Source: Candidatus Doudnabacteria bacterium
GTDB taxonomy: Bacteria > Patescibacteriota > Doudnabacteria > UBA920
Length of the DNA stretch: 64,000 nucleotides
Direction: 5' to 3'
Assembly: GCA_031291995.1 (NCBI GenBank)
Contig: JARLHZ010000034.1
Location: 14,915 to 78,914, forward strand
Shown here: positions 1 through 54,612 of the stretch, one piece after another
Layout: every line of letters starts with the position of its first letter
Numbering within the stretch: position 1 is the stretch's first letter
Position numbers and translations under genes: made by a program
Notes under the pieces: model-generated
Seen by the model: only the letters and a program-made list of their open reading frames with translations
Told to the model about the DNA's origin: nothing
Database searches by the model: none

Positions 1-66
1 AGGATTAGTCCTTGAGTTCAAACTTGATTCGCAAGTTCGTAAAAATTCGTAATTCGTAAAATCTAT

Positions 67-606: not shown

Positions 607-695
607 TAAGAGAATAGAGATTAGTGCTTAGTGAATAGGATAGAACGTATGTCTTCTCCTATTCACTATGCACTAGGCACTAAGCACTAAATCAA

Positions 696-2744: not shown

Positions 2745-3248
2745 ATGGAAAAAAGACGCAGACAATCAGGCCGGGACGGCGGCGACCGCGAACGCAATGA
2801 GTTCGACCAAAAAACCGTGGAAATTAAGCGCGTCACCCGCGTGGTGGCCGGCGGAAAACGCATGCGTTTTCGCGCGTTGGTTGTAATTGGCGACCACAAG
2901 GGCCGCGTAGGCATGGGCCTGAAAAAAGGCGCGGATGTTTCGGAAAGCGTCAACAAAGCCGTGAACGCCGCCAAAAAGAGCATGATTACATTGCCTTTAA
3001 TTAACGAAACCATTCCGCACGAAGTCAATGTTAAATATAAGTCTTCCAGTTTAATGTTCAAGCCGGCCAAGCCCGGTACCGGCGTTATTGCCGGAGGGGC
3101 GGTTCGCAGCGTTATGGAGCTTTCCGGCGTAAAGAACGTCGTCTGCAAAATGCTTGGCTCGAACAATAAAGTTAACAATGTCAAAGCCGTGTTTGCCGCT
3201 TTTAATAAAATGAAGAGCAAGTCGGCGCTGGCACAAATGCGCAAATAG
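2745..3248 (+). CDS. rpsE: 30S ribosomal protein S5
   Basis: S5 motifs (KRVTRVVAGGKRMRFRALVVIGDHKGRVG). The track start is TTG 2730; ATG 2745 is preferred. Confidence 0.9.
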   Translation: MEKRRRQSGRDGGDRERNEFDQKTVEIKRVTRVVAGGKRMRFRALVVIGDHKGRVGMGLKKGADVSESVNKAVNAAKKSMITLPLINETIPHEVNVKYKSSSLMFKPAKPGTGVIAGGAVRSVMELSGVKNVVCKMLGSNNKVNNVKAVFAAFNKMKSKSALAQMRK

Positions 3249-3337
3249 TTTACGAAGTACGAACAAGTACGAACTTACGAAAGTTTGTACTTAAGGTTCG
3301 TATGTTCGTAAAATTTCGTACTTCGTAAAATACATTT
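3249..3337 (+). repeat. Family B palindromic element (TTTACGAAGTACGAAC…GTTCGTACTTCGTAAA), copy before rplO
   Basis: About 85 bp imperfect palindrome built from TTACGAA/TTCGTAA units. Ends 9 nt before the rplO ATG. Contains TTGTAC-18-TAAAAT promoter-like hexamers. Confidence 0.85.
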
Positions 3338-3772
3338 ATGATCAAACTCCACGAACTCCACAAACACCCCAAATCCACCCACCGCCGCAAGGTTGTCGGC
3401 AGGGGTCTTGGCAGCGGCAAGGGAACCTATTCCACCCGCGGCAACAAGGGTCAAACCAAACGTACCGGACACAGCAAGATGCCTGTTAATTTTGAAGGCG
3501 GCCGCCAGCCGCTGGTTCGCCAATTGCCGAAGTTGCGCGGTTTTCGGGCTCTTGACGGCAAACCAGCCGTAGTCTCTTTGAACGAATTGGCTGTTTTTGC
3601 CGATGGTGCCACCGTGGATCTTAAATCTTTGATTGCCAAAGGTTTGGTGGATGATATGACAAAAACCGCAAAAATATTAGGCGGCGAAATTAAAAAGAAA
3701 TTAAACATAAAATTGCCAATTTCGGCATCCGCCAAAGAAGCGGTGGAAAAAGCCGGGGGCAAAGTCTTTTAG
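3338..3772 (+). CDS. rplO: 50S ribosomal protein L15
   Basis: 144 aa. GRGLGSGKGTYSTRGNKGQ is the L15 glycine-rich signature. It directly follows S5 with no L30 gene between them. Confidence 0.9.
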   Translation: MIKLHELHKHPKSTHRRKVVGRGLGSGKGTYSTRGNKGQTKRTGHSKMPVNFEGGRQPLVRQLPKLRGFRALDGKPAVVSLNELAVFADGATVDLKSLIAKGLVDDMTKTAKILGGEIKKKLNIKLPISASAKEAVEKAGGKVF

Positions 3773-3859
3773 TTTACGAAGTACGAACAGGTACGAACTT
3801 ACGAAGGTTTGTACTTAAGGTTCGTAAGTTCGTAAAATTTCGTACTTCGTAAAAAATAT
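3773..3859 (+). repeat. Family B palindromic element, copy before secY
   Basis: Near-identical to the 3249-3337 copy. Confidence 0.85.
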
Positions 3860-5140
3860 ATGAACAAACTAGCGTTAATTTGGAAAACCAAGGACCTGCG
3901 CAATAAAATTTTAATTGTAACGGGTCTGTTGTTAATTACCCGCGTACTGGCTCATATCCCGATTTCCGGCATAGATATTACCGGACTCAAAAGCTACCTC
4001 CAGCAGAGCCAGTTTTTTAATTTGTTGGATATATTTTCCGGCGGCGGCTTGACCAATTTCTCCATCGCCATGCTTGGTGTTGGTCCGTACATTACCGCCA
4101 CCATCATTATGCAGTTGTTAACCATTGTCATACCGTCCTGGGCGGAGTTGCAAAAAGAAGGCGGCGAGGCCGGCCGGCAACAGTTAAACCAATACACCCG
4201 CTGGATGACTATTGTTCTGGCTCCTCTCCAGGGTTTCGGCACCATTCGTTTGCTGCAGAGCCAGGGCGGCGCGGCGGTATTGGGAAGTTTTAGCCCGTTT
4301 GTATGGTTTACGGTTTTGTTGTCCATTACTACCGGCACGATGCTGCTTATGTGGCTGGGTGAAATTATGTCGGAATTTGACGTTGGCAACGGAGTCTCGT
4401 TGATTATTTTTGCCGGCATTGTCGCCCGCTTGCCCGCCAACCTTGGTTTTTTGCAGGGCTGGTACGATCCATCCAAGTTGCCGACAGTCTTGGCTTTTGC
4501 GGCCATGATTTTAATTGTCATTGCCGGAGTGGTTTTGGTAACTGAAGCGCAAAGGAATATTCCCATTGCCTATGCCAAGCGCGTCCGCGGCAACCAGCTG
4601 TTTGGGGGAGTGGATACTCATTTGCCGCTTCGCTTGAACCAGGCTGGAGTTATTCCGATTATTTTTGCGATTTCCGTCATGCTTTTCCCGGCCATGTTGG
4701 CCCAGTTTTTCGTCAATGCCAAATCGGGCCTATTGGCCGGGTTGGCGACAAAAACCATTGCTCTGTTCCAAAGCCAGGGGTTGTTTTATGGCGTGACTTA
4801 TTTTATTTTGGTTATGGCGTTTACGTATTTTTATACGGCTGTGGTGTTTAATCCCGAGGAAATTGCCGAAAATGTGCAAAAAAACGGCGGCTTTGTCCCA
4901 GGCCTAAGGCCTGGCGCTCAGACTGCGGATTTTTTGAGCATGGTGCTCAACCGTATTACCCTGGCCGGCGCCTTCTTTTTGGCCGTCATCGCTATTTTGC
5001 CTCTTATCTTGCAAAACTATACCGGCACTACTTCGTTAACCTTTGGCGGTACTTCTTTATTGATTGTGGTCTCCGTGGTCATCGAAGTAATCAAAAAAAT
5101 CGAAGCTCAGCTGACAATGCACGACTATGAGGGCTTTTAG
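3860..5140 (+). CDS. secY: preprotein translocase subunit SecY
   Basis: 426 aa, about 10 TM segments. Conserved position after L15. Confidence 0.93.
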   Translation: MNKLALIWKTKDLRNKILIVTGLLLITRVLAHIPISGIDITGLKSYLQQSQFFNLLDIFSGGGLTNFSIAMLGVGPYITATIIMQLLTIVIPSWAELQKEGGEAGRQQLNQYTRWMTIVLAPLQGFGTIRLLQSQGGAAVLGSFSPFVWFTVLLSITTGTMLLMWLGEIMSEFDVGNGVSLIIFAGIVARLPANLGFLQGWYDPSKLPTVLAFAAMILIVIAGVVLVTEAQRNIPIAYAKRVRGNQLFGGVDTHLPLRLNQAGVIPIIFAISVMLFPAMLAQFFVNAKSGLLAGLATKTIALFQSQGLFYGVTYFILVMAFTYFYTAVVFNPEEIAENVQKNGGFVPGLRPGAQTADFLSMVLNRITLAGAFFLAVIAILPLILQNYTGTTSLTFGGTSLLIVVSVVIEVIKKIEAQLTMHDYEGF

Positions 5141-5185
5141 ATACCGCGGATCTGCGCGCGGATAGCGACGCGGATCGGTCGCGGA

Positions 5186-5262
5186 AGCTATTATCCGTGT
5201 CATTGCGAGTGCGTCCGAAGCAATCCATATTCTGATAAGATTGCTTCGTCGTCAGCCAAAGC
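5186..5262. repeat. MITE-like solo TIR pair of the GIY-YIG-element hairpin family
   Basis: GTCATTGCGAGTGCGTCCGAAGCAATC…AAGATTGCTTCGTCGTCAGCC forms a long imperfect hairpin with no ORF between the arms. Lies downstream of secY. Confidence 0.6.
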
Positions 5263-5342
5263 CCCGAATCCCAGCAATGACAGCAATAATTTACCAATTC
5301 CCAAAAACCTGCCATAATATTGGCAGGTTTTAAAATGACTTT

Positions 5343-5891
5343 ATGGTATTATCGGATAAATCGATAAACGAATATCTGGCCAGTGGAAAAATAATAATTG
5401 AACCCGCGGTCACGCCAAACGATGTTCGTCCTGTTGGAATCAGATTACATTTGGGAGAAGGTTTGCTTCTGCCAAAATCCGGTCAGACTGTGGATTTATC
5501 GAAAGAACAGCCGGTCGATTATGATTCCATTACGATGGGTACCGACGGGTTTGTTTTAAAGCCCAGTGGATTTATTTTAGGAACAACTTTGGAGTTAATT
5601 AAGGTACCGAGAAATATTGTCTGTTTTTTGGACGGGCGTTCCACCCTGGCAAGGTTAGGTCTGATGATTCATGTTACGGCCATGGTCGCTGACGGTAATT
5701 TTGAAGAGCCCGGTTCAATTGTTTTGGAAATAAAGAATCTTTCCCCGATGAATTTAATTTTAAAACCTAACTTGCCCATAGGCATGCTGTTGTTTAATCA
5801 GATTGATCAAGAAATTGCCCAAGACGTCCAATTCCAGTATAAAGGGCAAAAAGGGGTTTTACCGCCGGACTTAAAAAATCAATTCAAGTAA
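5343..5891 (+). CDS. dcd: dCTP deaminase / dUTPase-fold protein
   Basis: 182 aa. Dcd-like N-terminus (LSDKSINEYLASGKIIIEP) and beta-rich core. Confidence 0.75.
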   Translation: MVLSDKSINEYLASGKIIIEPAVTPNDVRPVGIRLHLGEGLLLPKSGQTVDLSKEQPVDYDSITMGTDGFVLKPSGFILGTTLELIKVPRNIVCFLDGRSTLARLGLMIHVTAMVADGNFEEPGSIVLEIKNLSPMNLILKPNLPIGMLLFNQIDQEIAQDVQFQYKGQKGVLPPDLKNQFK

Positions 5892-6851: not shown

Positions 6852-9410
6852 ATGCCCGTTGAGCTAAGCACAATTCAAATTACGGCTCTGGTTTTAATTG
6901 CTTTGGTAGTCATTTTTTTGACTATCGCTTTTTATTATTTTAAAAGGCATCGCTATCACAGCAAACATATAGTTCCCAGAATAAAAGACTGGGTATTTTT
7001 GGAAATACAAATGCCCAAGGAAGGCTCGGAGGACAAGGACCAGCAGAGGCCGAAATCCGAGGAAGAAAAAAAGGCGTTGATTGCCGTGGCGGAGCAGTTG
7101 TTTACTACGCTTTCGGAGTCCGGACACAACAAAGGCTGGCTTTTGGGCAAGGATTATTACAGTTTTGAAATCGCATGCACGGAAAAGAAAATCAGTTTTT
7201 ATATAAATTGCCCGAAGCATTTACAGCAGCTGGTGGAAAAGCAGGTTCAGGCCCAGTATCCCCACGCCTTTGTGGAAGAAGTTAAAGGCTACAACCCGTT
7301 CCAAAAGGGCGGGACGATTGAAGTTATGGAATTGGAGCTGAACAAACAATATGTCTACCCGTACCGAACGTATAAAACCATGGAGTCGGACCCGCTGAAT
7401 TCTCTGACTAATGCCATGAGCAAGCTGCAGGAAAACGAAGGCGCGGCCATCCAGATAATTTTATCTCCGGCCGGGACTTTCTGGCAGAGCCGGCCCAGGC
7501 ACATGGCTTTGGAAATCCAGCAGGGTAAGAATCCCGAAATGGTGGAAAGAGGTCATGTCTATAAGTTATTGATAGGTTTCGCGCGATCGGTAGGACGCTC
7601 CATGGCGGGGATAGGCAACGGGAATCAAAATTACCAGGGCTCGCACGCGCATAAAGACTTGTCCGGTTATGCCTCGCCAATCCAGCTGACGCCAATGCAA
7701 AATGAAATTGTTAAAAAGCTGGAAGAAAAAGCCAGCCGCCCCGGTTACAAAACCAACATACGTTTAATTACGTCGTCCACCACGCCCGGGAGCGCGGAAA
7801 TCCACATGCGGAATCTGACCGCCGCGTTTTTACAGTATAATATGCCGCCGTTTAACGGCTTGCATCCTAAAAATCGTGACAAGAACGACGTGCTTAAGGA
7901 TTATATATTCCGCGTCTTCCGCGACAACGGCGCGCACGGCATTTTAAACACGGAAGAGCTGTCTTCCATATGGCATTTGCCCACGCCTTACATTGAAACC
8001 CCCAACATCAAATGGCTGGTATCCAAAAAAGCGCCGCCGCCGGTGAATTTGCCCAAAGAAGGTCTACTGCTTGGCCGCAGTATTTATCGCGGCCAGGAGA
8101 CCAAAGTGTTTATGGAGCGCGATGACCGCCGCCGGCATATGTATATTATCGGCCGCACCGGTTCGGGAAAAACCGAAATTATGAAATATATGTCCGTGCA
8201 GGACATTAAAAACGGCGAAGGTTTGTGCGTCATTGACCCGCACGGTGATTTTATAGAGGATATTTTGCCCCACATCCCCAAAGAGCGGGCCGAGGATGTT
8301 ATTTTATTTGAGCCGTTCGATATGGATCGGCCTATGGGATTGAATATGCTCCAGGTGGACAGCGAAGAACAAAAAGATTTTGCGGTGCAGGAAATGATCC
8401 AGATTTTTTACAAATTGGTTACCGACCCGGCCATGCTCGGACCGATGTTCGAGCACAATATGCGCAATGCTATGCTGACTCTTATGGCGGACGAAGAACA
8501 TCCCGGGACCATCACCGACATCCCGCGGATTTTTACCGACATGGAGTTCCAAAAATATAAAGTGTCCAAGCTCAAAGATCCGGTGGTTCGGCTGTTTTGG
8601 GAAAAAGAAATGGCCAAAACGTCCGACTTCCACAAATCCGAAATGCTTGGCTATTTAATTTCCAAAGTCGGCCGGTTCGTGGAAAACGCCATGATGCGAA
8701 ATATTGTCGGCCAGCCCAAATCGGCGTTTAACTTCCGTGAGGTTATGGACAAGAAAAAAATTCTGCTGATAAATTTGGCCAAAGGCAAAGTCGGTGAAAT
8801 TAACGCTAAACTTTTGGGGCTTATTATTGTCAGCAAAATCCAGATGGCAGCGCTGTCCCGCGCCGACACCAAAGAAGACAACCGTCCCGACTTTTATCTC
8901 TATGTGGATGAGTTCCAAAATTTTATTACCGACGCGTTTTCTTCCATATTATCGGAGGCCAGAAAATACCATCTTAACTTAATTGTCGCCCACCAGTATC
9001 TCGGACAGCTCGAACAGCAGGCCGGGGCGCAGGGAGCGGGCAGTAAGGATTTGCGCGACGCCGTATTCGGCAATGCCGGCACCATGGTTTGTTTCCGCAT
9101 TGGCGCCGAGGATAGCGAAATTATGGCCAAGGAGTTTAAACCGACATTTAACGAATTTGATTTGGTTAATGTGGACCGTTATAACGCATTTTTGAAGCTG
9201 ATGATAAACGGCACCGCCAGCAAGCCGTTTAATGTGGCCACTTACCCATTGCTCAGAAATGGAAATGAAGAGCAGGCTAAGGCTATACGACAGTTGTCAC
9301 GCTTAAAGCACGGGCGTGCCCGGGCCGAAGTGGAAGAAGAAATTTTGGAAGCCGGCCAAGTGGCGGAAAATATGGCGGCGGCTTTGCCGGACATTGAACG
9401 GGGGTTGTAG
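6852..9410 (+). CDS. membrane-anchored P-loop ATPase, VirB4/TrbE/TraC-like (T4SS/conjugation-type ATPase)
   Basis: 852 aa. N-terminal TM helix. Walker A IIGRTGSGKTE at about residue 433 and Walker B YLYVDEFQNF. The domain order (about 400 aa N-domain, then NTPase) matches the VirB4/CagE/TrbE family rather than coupling proteins. Confidence 0.6.
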   Translation: MPVELSTIQITALVLIALVVIFLTIAFYYFKRHRYHSKHIVPRIKDWVFLEIQMPKEGSEDKDQQRPKSEEEKKALIAVAEQLFTTLSESGHNKGWLLGKDYYSFEIACTEKKISFYINCPKHLQQLVEKQVQAQYPHAFVEEVKGYNPFQKGGTIEVMELELNKQYVYPYRTYKTMESDPLNSLTNAMSKLQENEGAAIQIILSPAGTFWQSRPRHMALEIQQGKNPEMVERGHVYKLLIGFARSVGRSMAGIGNGNQNYQGSHAHKDLSGYASPIQLTPMQNEIVKKLEEKASRPGYKTNIRLITSSTTPGSAEIHMRNLTAAFLQYNMPPFNGLHPKNRDKNDVLKDYIFRVFRDNGAHGILNTEELSSIWHLPTPYIETPNIKWLVSKKAPPPVNLPKEGLLLGRSIYRGQETKVFMERDDRRRHMYIIGRTGSGKTEIMKYMSVQDIKNGEGLCVIDPHGDFIEDILPHIPKERAEDVILFEPFDMDRPMGLNMLQVDSEEQKDFAVQEMIQIFYKLVTDPAMLGPMFEHNMRNAMLTLMADEEHPGTITDIPRIFTDMEFQKYKVSKLKDPVVRLFWEKEMAKTSDFHKSEMLGYLISKVGRFVENAMMRNIVGQPKSAFNFREVMDKKKILLINLAKGKVGEINAKLLGLIIVSKIQMAALSRADTKEDNRPDFYLYVDEFQNFITDAFSSILSEARKYHLNLIVAHQYLGQLEQQAGAQGAGSKDLRDAVFGNAGTMVCFRIGAEDSEIMAKEFKPTFNEFDLVNVDRYNAFLKLMINGTASKPFNVATYPLLRNGNEEQAKAIRQLSRLKHGRARAEVEEEILEAGQVAENMAAALPDIERGL

Positions 9411-9454
9411 GATCATATAGTAAATAACATATAGGCGCGAATGCGCTCGGCCGG

Positions 9455-9650
9455 GATGACAATAATTCAGTAACAGTTCACAAGCCTGAGTGAGGCCGAA
9501 AATCCTGCTGATTTTCCCAGCTGCGGGGCTCTTCGTTCATTCGCCTTTGGCGAATATCACAACGCCTCCCAATCCTCGCTGCGGAAAATCGCTAGCATTT
9601 CCGTCCTCCCGGGTTTGTCCAACTCGAGTTTGTGAACTGTTACAAAAATT
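9455..9650 (+). ncRNA. candidate structured RNA / structured 3' region closed by a 14 bp long-range stem
   Basis: GTAACAGTTCACAA (9459-9472) pairs with TTGTGAACTGTTAC (9635-9648). Several internal hairpins (GAAAATC/GATTTTC, ATTCGCC/GGCGAAT). The size and closing stem are compatible with a 6S-like fold, but not diagnostic. Confidence 0.2.
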
Positions 9651-9656
9651 CAGACT

Positions 9657-9684
9657 TGATTTATGTTTACTAAAATGGTATAAT
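9657..9684 (+). promoter_or_regulatory. sigma70-like promoter (TTGATT-16-TATAAT) for the downstream small ORFs
   Basis: TTGATT at 9657-9662 and an extended -10 TGGTATAAT ending at 9684, about 27 nt before ATG 9711. Confidence 0.5.
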
Positions 9685-9710
9685 ATCTCTATTATTAATT
9701 TATTAATTTT

Positions 9711-11228: not shown

Positions 11229-11304
11229 CAATTACAAATTAAAAATATCAAATTTTAAATTTGTACAAAGTTTTGGAATTTGAATTTGATTTGAAATTTG
11301 TAAT

Positions 11305-11985
11305 TTGACATTTGAAATTTATATAATGGACAACGTAGGTACAACTATGCCGAACCGAGAAAACGCTATTACCAGACTCCTGGAGCGTTTTCCGATAATT
11401 TACCAATTTCTGCGCTTTGCGGCGATTGGTTTTTTAAATGTCGCAATAAATTTTTTAATTTTAAACGGCATTTCAAAGGCTTTGGGGATATCGGAAGGTC
11501 TGCCACTTGGGGCTGTTGAGGCGGTGGCCTTTGTTTTTGCCCTGATTCAAAGCTACCTATGGAATAGAATGTGGACGTTTGGCGGCGAACAGGGCATATC
11601 GCTGTGGAAAAATTTTTTGCGGCTGGTGCTGGTGGGATCCGTTGGCGCGTTTTCGATTATTTTAGTCCTCGTCGGCTCCAAGTTTTTCGCTCCGCCGTAC
11701 TATTATTTTGGCATATTGCTGGTATTTTTAATCTGCCAGATAGTCCTGTGGCGGACTTTTGGCTTCCATACCTCAACCGCCGGACACACGGGCAATTCAT
11801 TTATCGCGTTTTTTATTGTAACGCTGGTGGGTTTTGGTATTAATGTCGGCTTGGTATCCCTAATTTCCCTGCACCTGCACATTACCCACACCGACCTGGA
11901 CAAAAACCTCGCCGCCGTCGCGGCCACCGCCGTATCATTGTTCTGGAATTTTTTTGGTTATAAGGTCGTGGTGTTTAAGAAATAG
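11305..11985 (+). CDS. GtrA-like family integral membrane protein
   Basis: 226 aa, multi-TM. RFAAIGFLNVAINFLILNG resembles the GtrA family motif. Possibly two GtrA-like repeats. Confidence 0.55.
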   Translation: MTFEIYIMDNVGTTMPNRENAITRLLERFPIIYQFLRFAAIGFLNVAINFLILNGISKALGISEGLPLGAVEAVAFVFALIQSYLWNRMWTFGGEQGISLWKNFLRLVLVGSVGAFSIILVLVGSKFFAPPYYYFGILLVFLICQIVLWRTFGFHTSTAGHTGNSFIAFFIVTLVGFGINVGLVSLISLHLHITHTDLDKNLAAVAATAVSLFWNFFGYKVVVFKK

Positions 11986-18220: not shown

Positions 18221-18700
18221 TACAGTATCTCCTCCTTGCTGAGGAGGAGTACCCGCCGCAGGCGGGGGAAGTGGTGAATAAATGGATTATCAGATAATAA
18301 AAAATAGACCAGACACAGTAAATTTTAGAAAGCAGTTGAGAAATAATTCATCACCGGCAGAAATTATATTATGGCTTGAGCTCAAAGGGCGAAAGTTAAA
18401 TGGTAGAAAATTTCGGAGGCAGTATGGGGTAGAACAGTTTACGGTTGATTTTTACTGTCCTGAATGTAAATTGGCTGTGGAACTAGATGGCGAGACCCAT
18501 AACAATCCTCAAAGCTTTAATTATGACGCCAAAAGAACAGAGGTTATATTGGGGCACGGAATAAAGACTATAAGATTTACTAATAAGGAAATCAGAGAAA
18601 ATTTAGCGGGAGTTTTGGAAGAAATTAAAAAATACTTGGATTGACACCACCCCGTCGCCCTGCGGGCGACACCCCTCCTCAGCAAGGAGGGGATGCTCCG
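18221..18700. mobile_element. about 480 bp element: DUF559 endonuclease-like gene flanked by about 45 bp terminal inverted hairpin repeats
   Basis: Left end 18221-18268 and reverse-complemented right end 18650-18700 align (CTCCTCCTTGCTGAGGAGG…CCGCCGCAGGCGG versus CCCTCCTTGCTGAGGAGG…CGCCCGCAGGGCG). Inserted between htrA and ruvX. Confidence 0.55.
18282..18644 (+). CDS. DUF559 (Vsr/endonuclease-like fold) domain protein
   Basis: 120 aa. DUF559-like pattern (…AEIILWLELKGRKLNGRKFRRQ…VDFYCPECKLAVELDGETH…). Confidence 0.7.
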   Translation: MDYQIIKNRPDTVNFRKQLRNNSSPAEIILWLELKGRKLNGRKFRRQYGVEQFTVDFYCPECKLAVELDGETHNNPQSFNYDAKRTEVILGHGIKTIRFTNKEIRENLAGVLEEIKKYLD

Positions 18701-21697: not shown

Positions 21698-22141
21698 ATG
21701 ATCTACATTGCCTCTGACCACGCGGGGTTTGAACTTAAAAATAAAATTATTGCGCATCTAAAAGGCAGCAACCAGGCCGTGGAAGATTGCGGGCCGTTTA
21801 AAGTTGACCCGGATGACGACTATCCCGACTTTATTTATCCGTGCGCGCAAAAAGTCGCTCAAAACCCGGGCAGTATGGGTATAGTAATCGGCATGAGCGG
21901 CCAGGGTGAGGCGATTGTGGCTAATAAAGTCAAAGGCATTCGCGCGGCGCTTTATTACGGCGGCCATGAGGATATTATTAAATTATCCCGCCAGCATAAT
22001 AATTCCAATATCCTATCGCTGGGCGCGAGATTTTTATCGGTTGAGCAAGTCGAACGCGCCATAGACTTATGGATAGAAACCGGCTTTGACGGCGGCAGGC
22101 ACCAGAGAAGGATAGACAAAATTAACGCTTTGGAAAAATAA
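21698..22141 (+). CDS. rpiB: ribose-5-phosphate isomerase B
   Basis: 147 aa. MIYIASDHAGFELK RpiB/LacAB N-terminus. Confidence 0.85.
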   Translation: MIYIASDHAGFELKNKIIAHLKGSNQAVEDCGPFKVDPDDDYPDFIYPCAQKVAQNPGSMGIVIGMSGQGEAIVANKVKGIRAALYYGGHEDIIKLSRQHNNSNILSLGARFLSVEQVERAIDLWIETGFDGGRHQRRIDKINALEK

Positions 22142-22142: not shown

Positions 22143-22227
22143 AGATGGAATTTACGAAGTACGAACAGGTACGAACTTACGAAGTTTGTCCGTTCGTAAG
22201 TTCGTAAACATCCATACTTCGTAAACT
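22143..22227 (+). repeat. Family B palindromic element, copy between rpiB and rpe
   Basis: ATTTACGAAGTACGAACAGGTACGAACTTACGAAG…CGTTCGTAAGTTCGTAAAC…ACTTCGTAAAC. Confidence 0.8.
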
Positions 22228-23744: not shown

Positions 23745-23745
23745 T

Positions 23746-23822
23746 GTCATTGCGAGTGCATCCGAAGCAATCTTTTTATAAATAGACTGCTTCGTCGGCT
23801 GCACTCATCGTAACGACATGAC
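23746..23822. repeat. MITE-like solo TIR pair of the GIY-YIG-element hairpin family (between tktA and tktB)
   Basis: GTCATTGCGAGTGCATCCGAAGCAATC, 13 nt, then GACTGCTTCGTCGGCTGCACTCATCGTAACGAC. The arms are imperfect reverse complements. Confidence 0.6.
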
Positions 23823-24828: not shown

Positions 24829-25209
24829 GTCATTCCGAGGGAGTGCATCCGACCGAGGAATCCCTTAGTATATGAAAGAGTATCAATATTTCGTATATAT
24901 AATGGCCAGTAATAGCGGCACGTTATATACTGGCATAACAAGTGATTTGTATAAAAGGGTTTATCAGCATAAAAATAACCTAATTGAAGGTTTTACAAAA
25001 AAATACCAATGTCATAAACTTGTCTATTTTGAGGAAACTACCGAGGCGGAATCGGCGATTGCAAGAGAAAAGCAAATTAAAGGTTGGAGCAGGTGGAAGA
25101 AGGAAGATTTGATAAGGTCAAAAAATTTTTACTGGGAAGACCTATCCAAAAGCTGGGAATAATAAACTAAGGGATCCCTCGGCCGTATTCCCAGGCCTCG
25201 GGATGACAC
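24829..25209. mobile_element. about 380 bp element: GIY-YIG (COG2827) gene flanked by about 36 bp imperfect terminal inverted repeats
   Basis: Left GTCATTCCGAGGGAGTGCATCCGACCGAGGAATCCC (24829-24866) and right GGGATCCCTCGGCCGTATTCCCAGGCCTCGGGATGAC (25172-25209) are reverse complements of one another with a few mismatches. Confidence 0.6.
24872..25162 (+). CDS. small stand-alone GIY-YIG nuclease-domain protein (COG2827/YhbQ-like)
   Basis: 96 aa. YFVYIMAS…GTLYTGITSDLYKRVYQH GIY…YIG motif. Confidence 0.8.
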   Translation: MKEYQYFVYIMASNSGTLYTGITSDLYKRVYQHKNNLIEGFTKKYQCHKLVYFEETTEAESAIAREKQIKGWSRWKKEDLIRSKNFYWEDLSKSWE

Positions 25210-26614: not shown

Positions 26615-26711
26615 ATTTATAAAATTGGTGTAATTAAGGAACTAAGATTCCTGCCTTCGCAGGAATGACACAAGTGTACTAATCCTAGAGGCGGGTATCT
26701 CCTAGTGAGTC

Positions 26712-27064
26712 ATTCCTGGCAGTAGCATCCGAGACCAGGAATCTTGAATCCCATGAAGAATTATTTTGTTTATATATTGGCAAGTAAAAAAGATGGAGTA
26801 TTGTATATTGGAGTTACAGGTGATTTAATAAGAAGAGTATGGGAACATAAAAATAACATAATAGAGGGTTTTACCAAGAAGTATTTTGTGCACCGGTTAG
26901 TATATTTTGAATCAACGACAGATGTTGAAAGTGCAATAAACAGGGAGACGCAATTAAAAAGATGGAAGCGCGATTGGAAAATTAAACTTTTTGAAAAAGA
27001 TAATCCCAATTGGGAAGATTTATATCCAAAAATAATTTAAGATTCCTGCCTTCGCAGGAATTAC
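26712..27064. mobile_element. second GIY-YIG element bounded by the same hairpin-repeat family
   Basis: Left GTCATTCCTGGCAGTAGCATCCGAGACCAGGAATCT (26712-26747). Right AGATTCCTGCCTTCGCAGGAATTAC (27040-27064). Extra partner copies lie at 26645-26673, 27076-27115 and 27161-27187. Confidence 0.55.
26744..27040 (+). CDS. small stand-alone GIY-YIG nuclease-domain protein (COG2827-like), paralogue of 24872-25162
   Basis: 98 aa. YFVYILAS…GVLYIGVTGDLIRRVWEH, colinear with the first copy. Confidence 0.8.
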   Translation: MNPMKNYFVYILASKKDGVLYIGVTGDLIRRVWEHKNNIIEGFTKKYFVHRLVYFESTTDVESAINRETQLKRWKRDWKIKLFEKDNPNWEDLYPKII

Positions 27065-27075: not shown

Positions 27076-27187
27076 ATGTCATTCCTGGCGAGTGCAGCCG
27101 AGACCAGGAATCTTACAACCAAACTGGTATTAAAATTTATAACTTTTATCATAAATAATTTAAGATTCCTGCCTTCGCAGGAACGAC
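27076..27187. repeat. gene-less TIR pair (Y arm 27076-27115, X arm 27161-27187) of the GIY-YIG-element family, directly upstream of gap
   Basis: GTCATTCCTGGCGAGTGCAGCCGAGACCAGGAATCT, about 45 nt AT-rich spacer, then AGATTCCTGCCTTCGCAGGAACGAC. Same arms as the intact element with the gene missing. Confidence 0.55.
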
Positions 27188-33814: not shown

Positions 33815-35566
33815 ATGGCGGCCGACTGGAAAACTAAGCCGGAAATGCCCGAGGGTATTTTTGGAGTCGTAAATGACTTGCCGCGGCTGCTTCTGCAGCT
33901 GCTTTTTAACCGCGGCCTGTCCGGAGAGGAAGAAGCGCGTAAATTTATTGATTGCAAATACGAGGGCTTGCACGATCCGTTTTTGTTTCGGGACATGCGC
34001 CGGGCGGCGGATAGAATTTGGGAGGCGGTGGAGGCCGGCGAAAAAATTTGCATTTATGGGGATTACGACGCGGACGCGGTAACGGCCAACGCCGTTTTGC
34101 GCCAGACATTCGGTTTTTTGGGCGTTACGGCCACATCGTACATTCCGGACAGGTTTACGGAAGGATACGGGGTAAATTTGGAGGCGCTGATGAAGATAAA
34201 AGACGAAGGCACAAAGGTAATTATTACCGTCGATTGCGGCACGAATTCCGCGGACGCCGCCGAGTTTTGCGCGGCAAATAACATCGACTTTATTATAACC
34301 GACCATCACGAACTAATCGGTGACGCGCCAAAAGCTTACGCTTTAATAAACCCAAAAAATCCTGAGGACACTTATCCGTACTCTGAAATTACCGGCGTGG
34401 GCGTTGCGTTTAAATTGGCCTGCGGAATATTATCGTATTACGACAGGGTCACGGCCAGGCTATGGTCCGGAACCTTGTCTACTCCCACAATGCCGGCAAA
34501 AAAGTACGCCGGCGGTTTTGAAAAATGGCTTTTGGATCTTGTGGCTATCGGTACCGTGGCCGACTGCCACAGCCTTATGGGCGAAAATCGGATTTTGGTC
34601 AAATACGGCTTAAAAGTTTTGGAGAAAACCAGATGGCCGGGCTTAAAGGCAATTATTTTATCGGCCGGGTTGGATTTTAAGCGGCGGCCCGCGGATACTT
34701 ATTCGCTGGGCTTTGTTATCGCCCCGCGCTTGAACGCCGCCGGCCGGCTGGAACACGCCAATGTGGCATTGGACGTTTTACTTGAAACTGACGCAAATCT
34801 CGCGGCCGAAAAAGCGCAAAAATTGGATCTCATAAACCGCCGCCGGCAGGATCTGACGGAGCGGGTGCTAAGCGAAGCCCGCGAACGGGCGATTTTGCTT
34901 AAAGACCGGAAAATTTTGGCGCTTATGGGCGAAGGTTGGGCTAAAGGCGTGGTCGGGCTGGTTGCCGGGCGGCTGGCCGAAGAGTTTAATAAGCCCGCAA
35001 TAATTTTGGAAAAATTAGAAACCCTGTCGACCGGTTCGGCGAGGACGGCGGGGGAATTTAATATTTTAGAGGCGATAAAATTTGCTTCCGCCCATCTGGA
35101 AAAATTCGGCGGACATAAACAGGCGGCCGGCTTGAGCTTAAAGCCTGAAAAATTCGAAGTTTTTTACCAGCAGGTCCTGATTTACGCGGATGCCAATATG
35201 CCCCGGGAGCAGGCACCGCGGGTTTTGGAAATGGAAGCCGAACTTTTACCCGAAGACCTACAGCTTACAACTTACAGCTTGGTTGCTATGATGGAGCCCT
35301 TTGGCGTGGATAACCCCAAGCCGAAATTTTTAATAAAAGGCGCGCAGATTATTTCAGCCCGGGTGGTCGGGCAAATCGGCAAGCATTTGCAGTTTCGGCT
35401 CAAGGCCGGTAATAAAGAAATCGCCGCTATTTATTTTAACGCCCCGGAATTTGCCAAACACTTAAAAATTGGCGATACTGTAAATGTCGCGGCCGAACTT
35501 ATTGAAGACGGCTGGAACGGGAGGCGGGAAGTAAAATTGCGGATTGTCGACTTGAAGAACAAGTAA
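33815..35566 (+). CDS. recJ: single-stranded-DNA-specific exonuclease RecJ
   Basis: 583 aa. DHH-family motifs (IYGDYDADAVTA, DHH), a DHHA1-like region and a C-terminal OB-like domain. Confidence 0.85.
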   Translation: MAADWKTKPEMPEGIFGVVNDLPRLLLQLLFNRGLSGEEEARKFIDCKYEGLHDPFLFRDMRRAADRIWEAVEAGEKICIYGDYDADAVTANAVLRQTFGFLGVTATSYIPDRFTEGYGVNLEALMKIKDEGTKVIITVDCGTNSADAAEFCAANNIDFIITDHHELIGDAPKAYALINPKNPEDTYPYSEITGVGVAFKLACGILSYYDRVTARLWSGTLSTPTMPAKKYAGGFEKWLLDLVAIGTVADCHSLMGENRILVKYGLKVLEKTRWPGLKAIILSAGLDFKRRPADTYSLGFVIAPRLNAAGRLEHANVALDVLLETDANLAAEKAQKLDLINRRRQDLTERVLSEARERAILLKDRKILALMGEGWAKGVVGLVAGRLAEEFNKPAIILEKLETLSTGSARTAGEFNILEAIKFASAHLEKFGGHKQAAGLSLKPEKFEVFYQQVLIYADANMPREQAPRVLEMEAELLPEDLQLTTYSLVAMMEPFGVDNPKPKFLIKGAQIISARVVGQIGKHLQFRLKAGNKEIAAIYFNAPEFAKHLKIGDTVNVAAELIEDGWNGRREVKLRIVDLKNK

Positions 35567-35664
35567 ACAAGGATACAAGTAAACAAGTAAACAAGTAAAC
35601 AAGTAAACAAGTAAACAAGTAAACAAGTAAACAAGGATACAAGGATACAAGGATACAAGGATTG
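35558..35664. repeat. microsatellite: (GTAAACAA)x7 flanked by (GGATACAA)x4
   Basis: Perfect 8-mer tandem arrays. The recJ stop codon TAA lies inside the first repeat unit. Confidence 0.9.
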
Positions 35665-35695
35665 GCCCAGATTGCTAGATCGTTAAATTGACACA

Positions 35696-36103
35696 ATGAA
35701 TTTAATTATAAACACAGACGGGGGAGCCAGGGGTAATCCGGGTCCGGCCGGGATTGGCGTGGTCATTCGCAACGCCGAAAATCAAATTATCGCGGAACAT
35801 AAACAGTATATTGGCGAAGCGACCAATAATGTGGCCGAGTATAAGGCTCTGATATTGGCGTTGTCGGAAGCCTTAGCCCATAGCCCTACTCCCTTAGCCC
35901 TGGAAATCCGCATGGACAGCGAACTGATTGTCCGCCAGATGCAGGGCCGCTATAAAATTAAGGAACCCACGCTAAAACTGCTGGCCGCGGAAGTGTTAAA
36001 ACTGATTAAAAATTTTAAGCACGTGGCCTTTAGTCACGTGCCTAGAGAACAAAACAAAGAGGCCGACAAACTGGTCAACGAAGCCATAGACGCGGCAATA
36101 TAA
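35696..36103 (+). CDS. rnhA: ribonuclease HI
   Basis: 135 aa. INTDGGARGNPGPAGIGVVI RNase H N-terminus and a DSELIVRQM-type motif. Confidence 0.85.
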   Translation: MNLIINTDGGARGNPGPAGIGVVIRNAENQIIAEHKQYIGEATNNVAEYKALILALSEALAHSPTPLALEIRMDSELIVRQMQGRYKIKEPTLKLLAAEVLKLIKNFKHVAFSHVPREQNKEADKLVNEAIDAAI

Positions 36104-40774: not shown

Positions 40775-40869
40775 ATTGGGAGGAGATGGTTATAGGTTAT
40801 AGAGGTTGGAGTGGTAATAAGTCCTGGAAGTTTTCCACAGCTTGACTGGCGTGCGCATTGTGTTAAACT

Positions 40870-41110
40870 ATTTTTACATTTGAATATTATAAAGCCATAG
40901 CGGAGTCGCGATCCGTTTGCTGTCCCGAATAAATCGGGAACGGTCAGCCTTTCCGTACAACTAGGTAAATAAGTGTCCCCGCGAAGTAGCGGGGGAATCG
41001 AGGTGGTACCGCGGTAATGTTTGAATCCATGAACGAGTCGTCCGGCTCCGGTTCATGCCAAACCCGCCCTTGAAAACAACTACGTTGTTTTTGTGGGCGG
41101 GTTTTGATTT
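40870..41110 (+). ncRNA. candidate structured small RNA ending in a strong intrinsic terminator
   Basis: 500 nt gap with no coding potential. TTGACT…TAAACT promoter-like hexamers at about 40833-40861. Several perfect local stems (TCCCGA/TCGGGA, TCCCCGC/GCGGGGA, CATGAAC/GTTCATG). Terminator AAACCCGCCC…GGGCGGGTTT at 41060-41104 followed by a T-run. Confidence 0.3.
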
Positions 41111-41312
41111 ATTCTAATCCAGCCTTGGATTATAAAAAAACATCCGCCGTACCCTTGGGCTATGGCGAAGGCGGATAAATGCTTTATTACTATCTAGTAA
41201 TAAAGTGCCCCAGGTAAGGCATAAATGACGCGAACTAGTAAAAATAATTCTCATCGGAAAATTTGTAAGACTTCTGTTGAGAACAATTTTTGTTAGTCCA
41301 AAAGGAGAGCTT

Positions 41313-42114: not shown

Positions 42115-42234
42115 AACCGCCGATCCGACGCTACTATATATGCGGATAGGTCGCTGAGAAGGTACTTGAAACTTCAGTGTTTGTCTCAGCGGTGGTCTTA
42201 AAATCGGCGTCGCCTCAGCGTCATAAAAAACAAA

Positions 42235-43899
42235 ATGTTAATCAACATCCTTTTAGTCATAGATTTTATAATGCTGGCGGTAGTCGTTAGCGCTTATATT
42301 TACGCGTCCCGGAGGGAACGTAAGTACTTGCGATCGGAAGCCGACCAGTCATTGGAACTGCAGCAGAAAGTTTACCAGGCGCAGGTGTTAAAAGAAATCA
42401 GCGAACGCATCGGTTATTCGTTAAATACCGGGAAGATTGTGGATATTATTACCAGCAGTCTCGGAAATTTGCTGGATTACGATACAGTGGCCTACATGGT
42501 TTTGCAGGAAGACGGCAAAGTGGTTTTTAAATGCCAGGTGGAAAACTCCGTTAACCATGAATTTATTGAGCAGGTGAAAGAAAAAATGCTCATGTCCTAC
42601 GAAGCTATTTTAAACAAAAAGATTTCCACCGCCGGTTTGGACGAAAGCGTTACCGGAAATATATTAAACGATAACTCGAAATTCAGAGTTACGTCTTTTT
42701 TTAATCTGCCCGTGGTTATTTCGCGGAAATTGGTGGGGCTGATTAATGTTGCTTCCCACGAACCCGGCCGGTACGGCGAAGAACAGGCGTCCATTTTATA
42801 CGCGATTACCAACCAGGCCGCCACGGCGGTTTCCAAACTCCAGGAAGTTTTGGAAAGTGAAAAAGGCAAATTGGCCGCGGTTATTTATTCTTTGGCCGAC
42901 GGGGTTATAACCGTGGATTTAAATTACCAGCTTACGGTTTACAATCCGGTCATTAAAAATATTCTGGAAATCGCCCATAATAAACCGCTAACAATGTTTG
43001 ACATAGTTGACGCGCTGGCCGGCAAAATCGACTTGCGTACCAAAATCGAGCAGTCTATTGCGGAGAATAAAACCTTAAACGTACCGGATGTGATTTTAAA
43101 AGACAAAGCCCTGGAGCTGACTATATCTCCGGTCAAAGACAGCGGCGGAACCGTTATTGCCGCGACCGTGGTATTCCACGACATTACCACGGAAAAAACT
43201 TTGGAAAAAACCAGGCAGGAATTTACCGCCATGATGGTTCATGAACTCCGGGCGCCGTTGACCGCGGTGCGCTGGTCCAGCGAATCTTTAATTAAAAACC
43301 TCGCGGCCAACACCGGCGTTGACCCGGCTAAAGTTAAAGATACGGTGGTCACCATAGAAACCGCTTCCAATAATATGCTGGAACTGGTGAACGACCTGCT
43401 GGATGTTGCCAAAATTGAGGCCGGTAAATTCGAATTGAATATACAGGATTATGATTTGGTGGAGCTGATTAACGAACAGGCCAAAGTTTTCCGGCCCCAG
43501 GCCGAAGTTAAACATTTGGCCATTAACGTTATTACTCCGCCCAAATATATGCTAAAATTTGATAGAGTAAGGGTTGGCCAGGTTTTAGGCAATTTATTGA
43601 GTAATGCCATAAAATATACGGATAGCGGCCAAATAGAGGTAAATTTGGTGCCTAACGCCCAGGAAAAGACCGTGGCGATAGGGGTAAAAGACAGCGGGAT
43701 AGGGGTGTCCCATGAGGATTTATCCAGCCTTTTTTCCAAATTTAAACAGTTGAAAACCGGCGACCACGCCAGAAAAGGCACCGGTTTGGGCCTGGTGGTG
43801 AGCCGGGGAATCGTGGAAGCCCATGGCGGCAGAATTTGGGCGGAAAGCGCGGGGGAAAATTTGGGTACGACATTTAATTTTTCATTACCAATTATATAA
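42235..43899 (+). CDS. sensor histidine kinase (TM, GAF-like, HisKA, HATPase_c)
   Basis: 554 aa. HisKA H-box MVHELRAPL. N, G1 and G2 boxes (NLLSNAIKYT, DSGIGV, GTGLGL). Confidence 0.85.
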   Translation: MLINILLVIDFIMLAVVVSAYIYASRRERKYLRSEADQSLELQQKVYQAQVLKEISERIGYSLNTGKIVDIITSSLGNLLDYDTVAYMVLQEDGKVVFKCQVENSVNHEFIEQVKEKMLMSYEAILNKKISTAGLDESVTGNILNDNSKFRVTSFFNLPVVISRKLVGLINVASHEPGRYGEEQASILYAITNQAATAVSKLQEVLESEKGKLAAVIYSLADGVITVDLNYQLTVYNPVIKNILEIAHNKPLTMFDIVDALAGKIDLRTKIEQSIAENKTLNVPDVILKDKALELTISPVKDSGGTVIAATVVFHDITTEKTLEKTRQEFTAMMVHELRAPLTAVRWSSESLIKNLAANTGVDPAKVKDTVVTIETASNNMLELVNDLLDVAKIEAGKFELNIQDYDLVELINEQAKVFRPQAEVKHLAINVITPPKYMLKFDRVRVGQVLGNLLSNAIKYTDSGQIEVNLVPNAQEKTVAIGVKDSGIGVSHEDLSSLFSKFKQLKTGDHARKGTGLGLVVSRGIVEAHGGRIWAESAGENLGTTFNFSLPII

Positions 43900-43902: not shown

Positions 43903-43978
43903 AGTTTACGAAGTACGAAATTTTACGAACTTACGAAAGTTCGTACGTTCGTATCGGTTCGTACTTTGTAAAATATAG
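43903..43978 (+). repeat. Family B palindromic element, copy between the histidine kinase and response-regulator genes
   Basis: GTTTACGAAGTACGAAATTTTACGAACTTACGAAAGTTCGTACGTTCGTATCGGTTCGTACTTTGTAAAA. Confidence 0.8.
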
Positions 43979-44373: not shown

Positions 44374-44493
44374 ATTGCTGATGAGTCCTGGTTTGGTGCT
44401 GAGGTGGAAATTTTGATTCAGCGTCATATCAGCGTAGTTATCCACCTCCGCCAAGGCTACGGCGGACTCACGTCAGCGAAAAATCAGCGAATT

Positions 44494-44913: not shown

Positions 44914-44930
44914 TCAATTTTTAATAAAAA

Positions 44931-45440
44931 TTGAAAAATCAAAATTCTAAATTAATCATTCCGAGGCAATTCTTTGTCATTGCCCACAATATCCGTTCGC
45001 TTTATAACGTCGGGTCGATTTTTCGTACGGCCGACGCGTTAGGGGTCAGTAAGATTTATTTAACCGGTTATACCGGCAGCCCGGAAAACCCGTCCCATAA
45101 AGACAAAATTGCCAAAGTGGCGCTTGGGGCTGAGGATTGGGTGCCTTGGGAGCATTCGGAATCGGCTCAGGCTGTTATCCGCATCCTTAAAAAGCAAAAA
45201 GTGTTAATCGTCGGGCTGGAAAACAACCTGGAAGCGGGGCAAAAAGCCGTTGCCTTAAACTCGTTTAAACCCAAATTCCCTTTGGCGTTAATTCTTGGGG
45301 AAGAAGTTAATGGGATTAATAGCACTTTAATAAAGTCTTGTGACAAGCTGGTGGAAATTCCCATGTCCGGTAAAAAAGAAAGCCTTAATGTTTCCGTGGC
45401 TTTTGGAATCGCGGCCTATTATATTTCTTCGAAAGTGTAA
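44931..45440 (+). CDS. SpoU/TrmH-family RNA 2'-O-methyltransferase
   Basis: 169 aa. SpoU motifs (HNIRSLYNVGSIFRTADALGV, LILGEEVNGI, NVSVAFGIAAY). Confidence 0.8.
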   Translation: MKNQNSKLIIPRQFFVIAHNIRSLYNVGSIFRTADALGVSKIYLTGYTGSPENPSHKDKIAKVALGAEDWVPWEHSESAQAVIRILKKQKVLIVGLENNLEAGQKAVALNSFKPKFPLALILGEEVNGINSTLIKSCDKLVEIPMSGKKESLNVSVAFGIAAYYISSKV

Positions 45441-45624
45441 AATATTTTGTAAAATTGTATTTTTATGTTCTAATAAAACGAATAAAATTTAGCTGCCTAA
45501 AAAATTTAAAAAAATATTGAAAATTTTGGGAGTATTTGTGGACAGGCTTAATGAAATCCACCAAATTAGGTTGTATACCGCTTGTGAAAGCGGTTTTTTT
45601 ATTGTTTGACGGAGCTTAACGAGC

Positions 45625-45654
45625 TTTGACTTATGGGTAAATGTGGTATATAAT
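45625..45654 (+). promoter_or_regulatory. mraZ promoter TTGACT-18-TATAAT (extended TG)
   Basis: Near-consensus hexamers at 45625-45630 and 45649-45654. Confidence 0.55.
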
Positions 45655-45673
45655 ACTAGAGTCATGGCAAAAA

Positions 45674-45710
45674 GTGGATAAAAGTGGGGACAAGTGGGTG
45701 TTTTAGTGGA
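45674..45710 (+). promoter_or_regulatory. MraZ operator: direct repeats GTGGA-n5-GTGGG-n5-GTGGG-n7-GTGGA
   Basis: Four GTGGR pentamers at 45674, 45684, 45694 and 45706, immediately downstream of the -10. This matches the known MraZ GTGGG-repeat operator architecture. Confidence 0.6.
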
Positions 45711-49581: not shown

Positions 49582-49585
49582 TTCC

Positions 49586-54611: not shown

Positions 54612-54612
54612 T

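Follow-up and report, generated by a model that had tools for sequence, protein, structure and literature searches.

What are the palindromes of about 80 nt that separate consecutive genes in the ribosomal protein operon of a Candidatus Doudnabacteria bacterium, and by what route did they arrive there? They lie in a 64,000-nt stretch of contig JARLHZ010000034.1 (positions 14,915 to 78,914), hereafter the window, which contains 73 open reading frames (ORFs) and on which coordinates are given. An earlier reading of the bare letters, called the sequence-only reading below, had named these palindromes family B and had offered them as operator-containing promoters of a regulon, as hairpins of the repetitive extragenic palindromic (REP) type, as terminators, or as a combination of these. 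Our analysis leads to the view that family B is probably a non-autonomous palindromic repeat that is copied and inserted, closest to REPs, to the REP doublets termed REPINs and to miniature inverted-repeat transposable elements (MITEs), residing in a Doudnabacteria-like clade of the candidate phyla radiation (CPR).

Family B hairpins are built from tandem words and sit between stop and start codons

Four complete copies, bounded by TTTACG...CGTAAA, occupy positions 3249-3329, 3773-3853, 22151-22225 and 43905-43972 of the plus strand. The right arm of a further copy, cut by the window edge, is present at 28-60, and a related hairpin lies at 49584-49665. The repeats are where the sequence-only reading had put them, albeit with revised limits, and they exceed chance: the 16-mer TTCGTAAGTTCGTAAA, allowing up to three mismatches, has 10 matches against 0.77 expected, a number reached by none of 100 shuffles. 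The fold consists of a 15-bp lower stem, a 4x4 internal loop, a 14-bp upper stem and a variable apical loop, with 29 bp paired in all rather than the uninterrupted stem of about 35 bp proposed earlier. Fold energies of the window copies range from -33 to -41 kcal/mol, with z scores of -5.6 to -9.6, on either strand. Each arm is an array of four tandem (T/G)TACGAA words, and the opposite arm carries the inverse words (TTCGTA).

The placement of the hairpins relative to the flanking genes is tight. The 3249 copy (-37 kcal/mol, z -7.6) fills the rpsE>rplO spacer; it abuts the TAG stop codon at 3246-3248, and the rplO ATG at 3338 follows 8 nt after the stem. The 3773 copy (-40.8 kcal/mol, z -8.1) likewise abuts the TAG at 3770-3772 in the rplO>secY spacer, 6 nt ahead of the secY ATG at 3860. 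These two copies are 94% identical, loop included, and both have orthologous copies in a locus retrieved from another genome (L002; retrieved loci carry L numbers), at 505-592 and 1027-1116, respectively. In the rpiB>rpe spacer, the 22151 copy lies between a stop at 22139-22141 and an ATG at 22228, which its stem precedes by 2 nt; because of two A.C mismatches in the lower stem, its antisense strand folds better. The 43905 copy separates a histidine kinase gene (stop 43897-43899) from a response regulator gene (ATG 43990, 17 nt after the stem), and the polarity of its internal loop is opposite to that of the other window copies. The half copy at 28-60, on the plus strand, ends 6 nt before the rplE ATG at 67, and a full copy is found at the orthologous rplX>rplE junction of the metagenome-assembled genome (MAG) CAIWKW01 (L020 551-650). 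The uniform spacing of 8-10 nt to the ATG that had been described is therefore replaced by spacings of 8, 6, 2 and 17 nt in the complete copies and of 6 nt in the half copy. Pfam assignments identify the flanking gene pairs as S5>L15, L15>SecY, RpiB>Rpe and histidine kinase>response regulator, and the gene downstream of the half copy as L5.

All of these junctions (rplX>rplE, rpsE>rplO, rplO>secY, rpiB>rpe and kinase>regulator) are operon-internal, co-directional and functionally linked. The exception is the 49584 hairpin, a mixture of TACTAA and TACGAA words that is assigned to neither strand and lies between convergent genes, 2 nt past the stop codon of a PBP2 gene, with the minus-strand ORF 49680-50057 ending 14 nt away on the other side. 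It folds at -41.3 kcal/mol and scores 34 bits in the profile search described below; its sub-family also occurs at L025 6738-6821 and in L042. The earlier description of this palindrome was right about its location and not about its stem, which is imperfect (arms 86% complementary).

Translation initiation in this genome makes little apparent use of Shine-Dalgarno (SD) sequences. A loose SD-like 4-mer precedes only 15 of the 73 window genes, and most start codons follow A/T-rich sequence (TATATG, TTTTATG). Because the genome hardly uses SD sequences, their absence after a hairpin is uninformative. The claim that the palindromes leave no room for an SD sequence holds for four copies and fails for the 43905 copy, where AAAGGA before the ATG is a possible SD sequence; given the 15 of 73 genes, it carries little weight either way.

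Orthologous spacers of the spc operon point to insertion and turnover

We scanned metagenomes with SecY and obtained 80 loci, with SecY identities from 96% down to 40%, in each of which the L5-S14-S8-L6-L18-S5-L15-SecY genes of the spc operon were mapped. Among relatives with SecY at least 76% identical, 109 distinct spc-operon spacers measured 55-150 nt as against 16 shorter than 55 nt, and a hairpin of at least 15 pairs was present in 102 of the 109 long spacers (94%). These hairpins have a median span of 78 nt and begin 4 nt after the stop codon and end 10 nt before the ATG (medians). Outgroup spacers have a median of 14 nt, the sum of the 4 and 10 nt that flank a hairpin, and the placement spares the A/T-rich region of roughly 10 nt before the ATG. 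Where outgroup spacers are long, they mostly hold, as read from their sequence, an extra ORF at the rpmD position or promoter or terminator regions. Some members of the clade have empty junctions, and sister lineages with the same operon are hairpin-free. Since orthologous spacers occur both filled and empty, and since the outgroup length matches the remainder around the hairpins, the hairpins are insertions into an ancestrally short spacer. In the window, the operon segment at 2745-5891 lacks rpmD (L30) between rpsE and rplO, a known CPR hallmark, and secY is followed by dCTP-deaminase-like and zincin-like genes, not by adk and map.

Family B belongs to a set of roughly 20 word-hairpin families, all of them non-coding imperfect palindromes 65-110 nt long. 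In each arm a word of 6-8 nt is repeated three to five times in tandem, with variable linkers of 1-4 nt between the repeats, and a hypervariable loop separates the two arms. At one and the same junction the word differs between genomes, examples being TACGAA, CACGAA, CGCGAA, CGCGGAA, TACTAA, ATCAGC, TTAGC, GATATT, CATGAAA, GCAGAT, GTAGCT and CTAATT. About 20 words recur at various junctions and in various genomes, and their distribution does not follow the SecY tree. At rplO>secY, family B in the window corresponds to an AAACGC-word hairpin in the closest relative (L035, 96% SecY identity). MAG CAIWKW01 (88% SecY identity) has family B at three junctions that also hold it in the window. In the comparison of orthologous loci that the sequence-only reading had called for, hairpins fill nearly all spc spacers of the clade, and the same junction may hold another family or none.

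Orthologous hairpins also decay. The GCGGAA-word hairpins of L043 and L051 differ mainly towards A/T, with fold stability falling from -42.7 to -25.7 kcal/mol, a pattern that we read as probable uncompensated decay.

Family B copies in other genomes share stems and differ in loops

Scanning one genome per species with an exact pattern yielded 34 loci, and a profile search (nhmmer) of the window and these loci returned 45 distinct family B matches. An alignment of 37 copies contained 42 invariant columns and loops of 0 to 28 nt; 95.8% of its stem cells were paired, and one upper-stem position was mismatched in 23 of the 37. Within the CPR, near-identical stems were present in MAGs labelled Doudnabacteria (three), Saccharibacteria (two) and Minisyncoccia (one). 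The stems of these copies are virtually identical between genomes, while their apical and internal loops are unrelated. The same MAGs have other word-hairpin families in common, for example TACTAAA and AAAGTTAT. The 22151 copy is identical over 62 nt, including its loop (GTTTGTCCG) and internal loops, to two copies in MAG PLYC01 (L008 and L009), which sit at junctions other than rpiB>rpe; L009 was ruled out as an rpiB>rpe orthologue. L018 was likewise ruled out as a Saccharibacteria rplO>secY junction, its gene pair being a YqeY-like followed by an FtsA-like gene as identified from protein sequences without a domain search. Copying is supported by whole elements that recur, loop included, at non-orthologous junctions and in different genomes, and by the 94% identity of the 3249 and 3773 copies; in addition, one family may take the place of another at a junction, and elements are found nested.

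Covariation in the 37-copy alignment was confined to compensatory change in just two cells, which is not above the level in shuffled alignments. A stem conserved in sequence and devoid of covariation is the signature expected of a mobile-repeat-like sequence family, not that of an RNA kept only for its fold.

An upstream stop codon lies no more than 7 nt from the hairpin start in 35 of the 36 determinable copies, and in 27 of 37 there is also a co-directional start codon within about 16 nt downstream. By type of spacer, word-type hairpins number 80 in co-directional, 2 in convergent and 0 in divergent ones. In the flanks, position -2 is A in 32 of 36 copies and position +2 is T in 29 of 36, with variable -1 and +1 positions. 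A TA target was sought in these flanks and was not found, and a comparison of filled with empty sites yielded no alignable flanks. Both strands of the internal loops are purine-rich in the direction of the gene; on the 3' side, purines make up 75% or more in 31 of 37 copies, and three copies, including the one at 43905, are clearly reversed. The purine-rich 5' arm (83 of 100 hairpins) was considered as an orientation signal and ruled out: a palindrome has the same polarity on either strand, so that the 5'-purine/3'-pyrimidine arms are an intrinsic property of these palindromes, not a mark of orientation.

Beyond the CPR, the same (G/T)TACGAA words occur in another order and around larger central regions in an isolate of Foetidibacter luteolus and in MAGs of Flammeovirgaceae, Akkermansia and Acidobacteria. 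Same-word hairpins in non-CPR genomes were located at L007 4879-4976, L022 3408-3483, L028 1551-1638, L033 1899-2020 and L011 2687-2785. Some of the genomes with these hairpins have 54-57% GC, against which the A/T-rich arms are conspicuous.

Strand comparisons run counter to selection on a sense-strand RNA helix

To gauge the strand on which the fold is favoured, we compared the two strands of 125 distinct spacers; the antisense fold is the more stable one in 86 and the sense fold in 39 (Wilcoxon p = 2e-5). Mismatches on the sense strand are A.C in 52 cases vs G.U in 20. Selection for a helix in the sense-strand RNA would predict the reverse of this A.C excess and better antisense fold. A positive GC skew along the plus strand would not give this pattern; drift or selection that makes the sense strand rich in A and poor in G fits it. 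A structure-conserving RNA was rejected on these grounds, there being no covariation and a G.U versus A.C test that points the other way. Searching Rfam returned no gathering-level match for the hairpins, and an E-value threshold gave just sub-threshold chance matches to miRNA hairpin models.

Comparison with known repeats and hairpins

A REP carries an unpaired GTAG or CGTC tag at one end of its palindromic unit (PMC3733652), and a REPIN consists of two inverted REP units and a spacer that together form a hairpin, the doublet being better conserved than the spacer (PMC3116915). Like family B, REPs, REPINs and the bacterial interspersed mosaic elements (BIMEs) are short, dispersed extragenic palindromes with several families per genome (PMC3116915, PMC3733652). 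Further likenesses are a position mainly downstream of ORFs, between unidirectional or convergent genes, a hairpin that forms in single-stranded DNA or mRNA, plausible co-transcription, the absence of target duplication, and arms that are conserved around a spacer that is less so or free to vary. The REP-like hairpins of the sequence-only reading were in this respect broadly right, family B being a set of dispersed intergenic palindromes downstream of coding regions whose presence varies among relatives. Family B departs from REPs and REPINs in its ends, where neither GTAG/CTAC (somewhere in 7 of 37 copies) nor CGTC/GACG (in 2 of 37) ever takes a fixed position, and in its arms, which are tandem 6-8-nt words and not self-palindromic REP units. 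No REP-associated tyrosine transposase (RAYT) gene and no Y1/HUH domain was found among the 73 window ORFs. Word hairpins differ further in having roughly 20 families, in filling the intercistronic spacers of an essential operon to saturation and in their CPR hosts; our literature search returned no paper linking CPR bacteria with REP, MITE or palindromic intergenic repeats.

Bacterial MITEs (Correia or nemis elements of Neisseria, ERIC, RUP and BOX) are non-autonomous elements of about 100 nt whose terminal inverted repeats fold as RNA hairpins when co-transcribed. They show presence/absence polymorphism between strains, and Correia hairpins are reported RNase III substrates. Family B resembles them in its terminal inverted repeats (29 conserved bp) and in the filled/empty polymorphism of orthologous sites, and differs in having no target-site duplication, no internal non-palindromic body, word-built arms, and no parent insertion sequence in the window ORFs or the retrieved loci.

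Other comparisons are more partial. RNase III hairpins of phage T7 share with family B an intercistronic position and two helices around an internal loop (15 bp, 4x4 and 14 bp in family B); the analogy is purely functional, and the G.U and covariation tests lend family B no support for selection at the RNA level. Short tandemly repeated repetitive sequences of cyanobacteria are intergenic arrays of about 7-nt tandem words, mainly direct and sometimes with small mobile repeats nested in them, whereas each direct array of a word hairpin has an inverted partner, giving a defined hairpin next to a stop codon. HUH Rep proteins are multimeric and read tandem short repeats in hairpin stems, such as the GAGC repeats of the inverted terminal repeats of adeno-associated virus and the hexamers of circoviruses. 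Their hairpin origins resemble word hairpins in carrying tandem words in a stem duplex and provide a precedent for free linkers, a resemblance that serves as a lead only; family B has no conserved nick-site motif in the loop and no Rep/HUH gene nearby.

Several further identities were rejected. The R''/R' core sites of integron attC sites (RYYYAAC ... GTTRRRY) are absent, the ends being TTTACGAAG...CTTCGTAAA, and a large serine recombinase adjoining tRNA-Gln is the sole recombinase of the window. DNA-uptake sequences and clustered regularly interspaced short palindromic repeats (CRISPR) were ruled out by sequence features and by the multiplicity of families.

A model for word hairpins and its alternatives

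Taken together, a model for family B can be proposed. Word hairpins have spread into short spacers that separate co-directional genes, landing a few bases after the upstream stop codon, and would be co-transcribed with the operons that they enter. Tolerance may follow from the self-folding of the insert, which would keep stop and start codons near each other and leave the A/T-rich start region unpaired, under SD-independent translation. An enzyme that reads the repeated words in hairpin or duplex form could mobilise the elements without target duplication.

Several observations weigh against this model. No transposase or HUH/Y1 enzyme was found among the 73 window ORFs, although these do include two for GIY-YIG proteins, one for a DUF559 protein and one for a serine recombinase. 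A search of the retrieved loci for the same arms placed 0.5-3 kb apart around an ORF revealed no autonomous element, and IMG/VR viral contigs, PLSDB plasmids and INPHARED phages contained no family B copy that would mark them as vectors. No direct repeat flanks the 36 copies inspected for a target-site duplication, the palindrome reaching 0 nt past the core in 28 of the 36. The exact pattern used for retrieval lay in the outer stem, so that apparent conservation there is inflated, the inner stem lying outside the pattern; the MAGs are classified as labelled, and their unverified labels count in the same direction. The largely consistent asymmetry of the internal loop relative to the gene (31 of 37) could reflect an orientation-specific function, orientation-biased insertion or drift after insertion. 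Simple selfish spread does not account for the word-built arms, for the near-saturation of an essential operon or for hairpins that keep close to the stop codon even where the downstream spacer is long (L009, L032 and L026/L034); these features could indicate a function for the host.

Such a function is the substance of a first alternative, in which the hairpins are host-beneficial intercistronic RNA elements that act as processing or stability signals, protect the 3' end of the upstream cistron or bring stop and start codons together, letting terminating ribosomes reinitiate across the hairpin. RNase III sites between the early genes of phage T7 and the REPs in malE-malF are analogues for such processing or stability signals. 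We consider this alternative, which is compatible with a mobile origin, possible but doubtful. It would account for the exact stop-to-start placement inside operons, for the hairpins of at least 15 pairs retained in 102 of 109 long spacers, for the near-complete clade-wide occupancy of spc-operon junctions, and for the division of the helices into segments of 15 bp or less. The consistent internal-loop polarity (31 of 37) and the retention of a family at the same junction across sub-clades (family A, described below, at rplF>rplR and rplR>rpsE; GCGGAA at two junctions of L043/L051) speak for it as well. It is opposed by the lack of covariation, by sense strands that fold worse than antisense strands and carry A.C instead of G.U mismatches, by the uncompensated decay of orthologous copies, and by hairpin-free sister lineages and empty junctions in some clade members; a purely structural role would also not predict that the stem sequence, beyond its pairing, is kept across distant hosts. 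Generation in place, by replication slippage that multiplies a word, template switching that inverts the array and concerted evolution that alters the word, would require no transposition. Arms made of tandem words in variable number, a direct-only array (ACAAGTAA)n at 35542-35677, single-step word differences between genomes at rpsE>rplO (TACGAA, CACGAA, CGCGAA, CGCGGAA) and hybrid hairpins with TACGAA and TACTAA words are all in its favour. We nevertheless judge it improbable: it cannot yield identical 29-bp stems with common loops at non-orthologous junctions or in different genomes, and whole-unit homogenisation predicts the reverse of the variable linkers and fixed words that are seen.

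That the hairpins might instead be arrays bound by a protein as duplex DNA (a nucleoid protein, a gyrase-type enzyme or a repressor), or intrinsic terminators or attenuators, appears highly improbable to us. Conserved words of 6-8 bp with a period of about 8 bp and free linkers are reminiscent of tandem protein-binding boxes such as the 8-bp metboxes of MetJ and the omega heptads, and a location at gene ends would suit either role. However, about 20 words per clade would demand about 20 specificities in genomes that we assume to be of about 1 Mb, the typical size for CPR bacteria. The terminator suggested by the sequence-only reading was rejected, in that the A/T-rich stems are followed by, for example, AATACATTT or AAAATATATG and not by a U-tract, the terminator scan is silent, and termination within essential operons such as rpsE-rplO-secY would be harmful. 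Its other suggestion, sigma-70 promoters with dyad-symmetric operators that control a regulon of ribosome, secretion, pentose-phosphate and signalling genes, drew on a TTGTAC-18-TAAAAT motif and on the position of the elements ahead of start codons. The motif can be read in the adjacent 3249 and 3773 copies and in no other family member (2 of 37), its relaxed form (TTGNNN-16..18-TANNNT) is present in 3 of 37, and the promoter scan does not call it. The -35 element falls in the hypervariable apical loop, the copies lie between unrelated gene pairs inside operons, and the same junctions in relatives have unrelated hairpins or none. We regard such promoters as nearly untenable.

Mobile repeats thus remain our preferred explanation for family B, and a more far-reaching version of it can be put forward as a speculation that we ourselves think unlikely to hold in full. 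By analogy, word hairpins might form a mobile class distinct from REPs and MITEs, in which a multimeric enzyme reads the words singly, as Rep proteins do on hairpinned termini, and inserts the elements without duplication next to stop codons, with exchange between CPR lineages; hairpins made of these words are also present in genomes of Bacteroidota, Akkermansia and Acidobacteria. They might persist in SD-less operons since the folded RNA would let terminating ribosomes reinitiate, as a bacterial analogue of ribosome shunting.

Other word hairpins in the window

Folding of all spacers placed further word hairpins in the window. Family A (GATTGACAA words) is present on the plus strand in the rpsN>rpsH spacer (894-995), at rplF>rplR (2103-2228) and at rplR>rpsE (2613-2744), and it occurs at the same junctions in L048, L053 and L078. 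A family of CTTAGTG/CACTAAG words occupies the rplE>rpsN spacer (607-695, plus strand). Additional hairpins lie within the spacers at 1386-1547, 5141-5342, 11229-11325, 42115-42234, 44374-44493, 44914-45815 (near the 3' end) and 46248-46334. Small GC-rich hairpins (e.g., TTTTCCGCCAAAGGCGGAGCCGCCTCCGGCGGGAAA) are nested within word-hairpin arms or loops, at 2676-2712 in the rplR>rpsE copy of family A, at about 1250-1280 of L053 in family A arms, and in the rpsE>rplO spacer of L058; larger inserts lie within the loops of L058 and L054 hairpins. CCGCC/GGCGG motifs akin to the nested hairpins are also found at 2410-2443, inside the L18 gene rplR, and at 47383-47417.

In the direct-only tandem array at 35542-35677, an 8-nt unit (AACAAGTA / ACAAGGAT) is repeated about 14 times; a RecJ-like gene (33815-35566) lies on one side of the array and an RNase H-like gene (35696-36103) on the other. 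The array shares its period and word style with the hairpin arms, has no inverted partner, and could be a precursor form or a remnant. A different repeat family (TGTCATTGCGAGTGC.TCCGAAGCAATC...), unrelated to the word hairpins, forms hairpins at 5190-5270 and 23745-23815, after secY and a transketolase N-terminal gene.

Additional features of the window

Several other segments of the window stand out. The ORF at 18282-18644, between htrA and ruvX, encodes a 120-aa DUF559 protein (Vsr-like endonuclease fold) and is enclosed by 53-nt inverted repeats (18224-18276 and 18645-18697), each with two GC-rich hairpins; the cassette looks like the insertion of a small selfish gene. Two paralogous GIY-YIG nuclease ORFs of about 95 aa, at 24872-25162 and 26753-27040, stand in a row of glycolysis and pentose-phosphate genes, each ringed by its own repeat families (GATTCCTGCCTTCGCAGGAA and GTCATTCCTGGC...CCAGGAATC); repeats around these ORFs were mapped at 26632-26665, 27027-27060, 27150-27183, 26709-26745 and 27078-27114. 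At 51985-56000, tRNA-Gln (51985-52059) adjoins the large serine recombinase gene (about 52100-53514, minus strand), followed by a 38% GC block of small ORFs of unknown function; the segment is probably an element integrated at the tRNA gene. The minus-strand block at 57100-63900 holds a HisZ-like gene, HisS, histidine ammonia-lyase, a Trp-repressor-like gene and HisIE, at 48-52% GC, and has clear SD motifs (AAGGAG, GGGGGAGG, GAAGGAGG, TAGGAG), unlike the rest of the window. The higher GC content together with the SD motifs suggests horizontal acquisition from an SD-using organism.

Two further non-coding segments are predicted to be strongly structured. The first, 538 nt at 40775-41312 (-176 kcal/mol), contains a T-box-like motif (GGTGGTACCGCG) followed by a terminator-like hairpin; the T-box match at 40888-41048 is weak (26.6 bits vs a gathering score of 93, E = 0.005), and the downstream ORF of 91 aa has no Pfam match, which is unusual for a T-box leader. 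The second is the 300-nt spacer at 9411-9710, which follows the gene for an 852-aa VirD4/TraG-like type IV coupling protein (6852-9410) and folds as a very long imperfect hairpin (-91.6 kcal/mol) with arms of about 110 nt.

Implications for CPR genomes

The ultra-small CPR bacteria, or Patescibacteria, are regarded as extremely streamlined; in this clade, nevertheless, nearly every spacer of the essential spc operon holds about 80 nt of repeat DNA. Word hairpins stand out for arms built of words, for the number of their families, for nearly saturating an essential operon of a streamlined genome and for a distribution across lineages. Streamlined genomes of this kind tolerate, or use, abundant repeat DNA within their most highly expressed operons. 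Word hairpins will confuse promoter, terminator and non-coding RNA predictors as well as assemblers applied to CPR MAGs, and their families could serve as fine-scale strain markers. Mobilisation without target duplication, by way of word-built arms, may operate across phyla. Downstream cistrons can be translated even though a stable hairpin stands within a few bases of their start codon and no SD sequence is present, which makes the clade a natural test bed for the coupling of termination to reinitiation.

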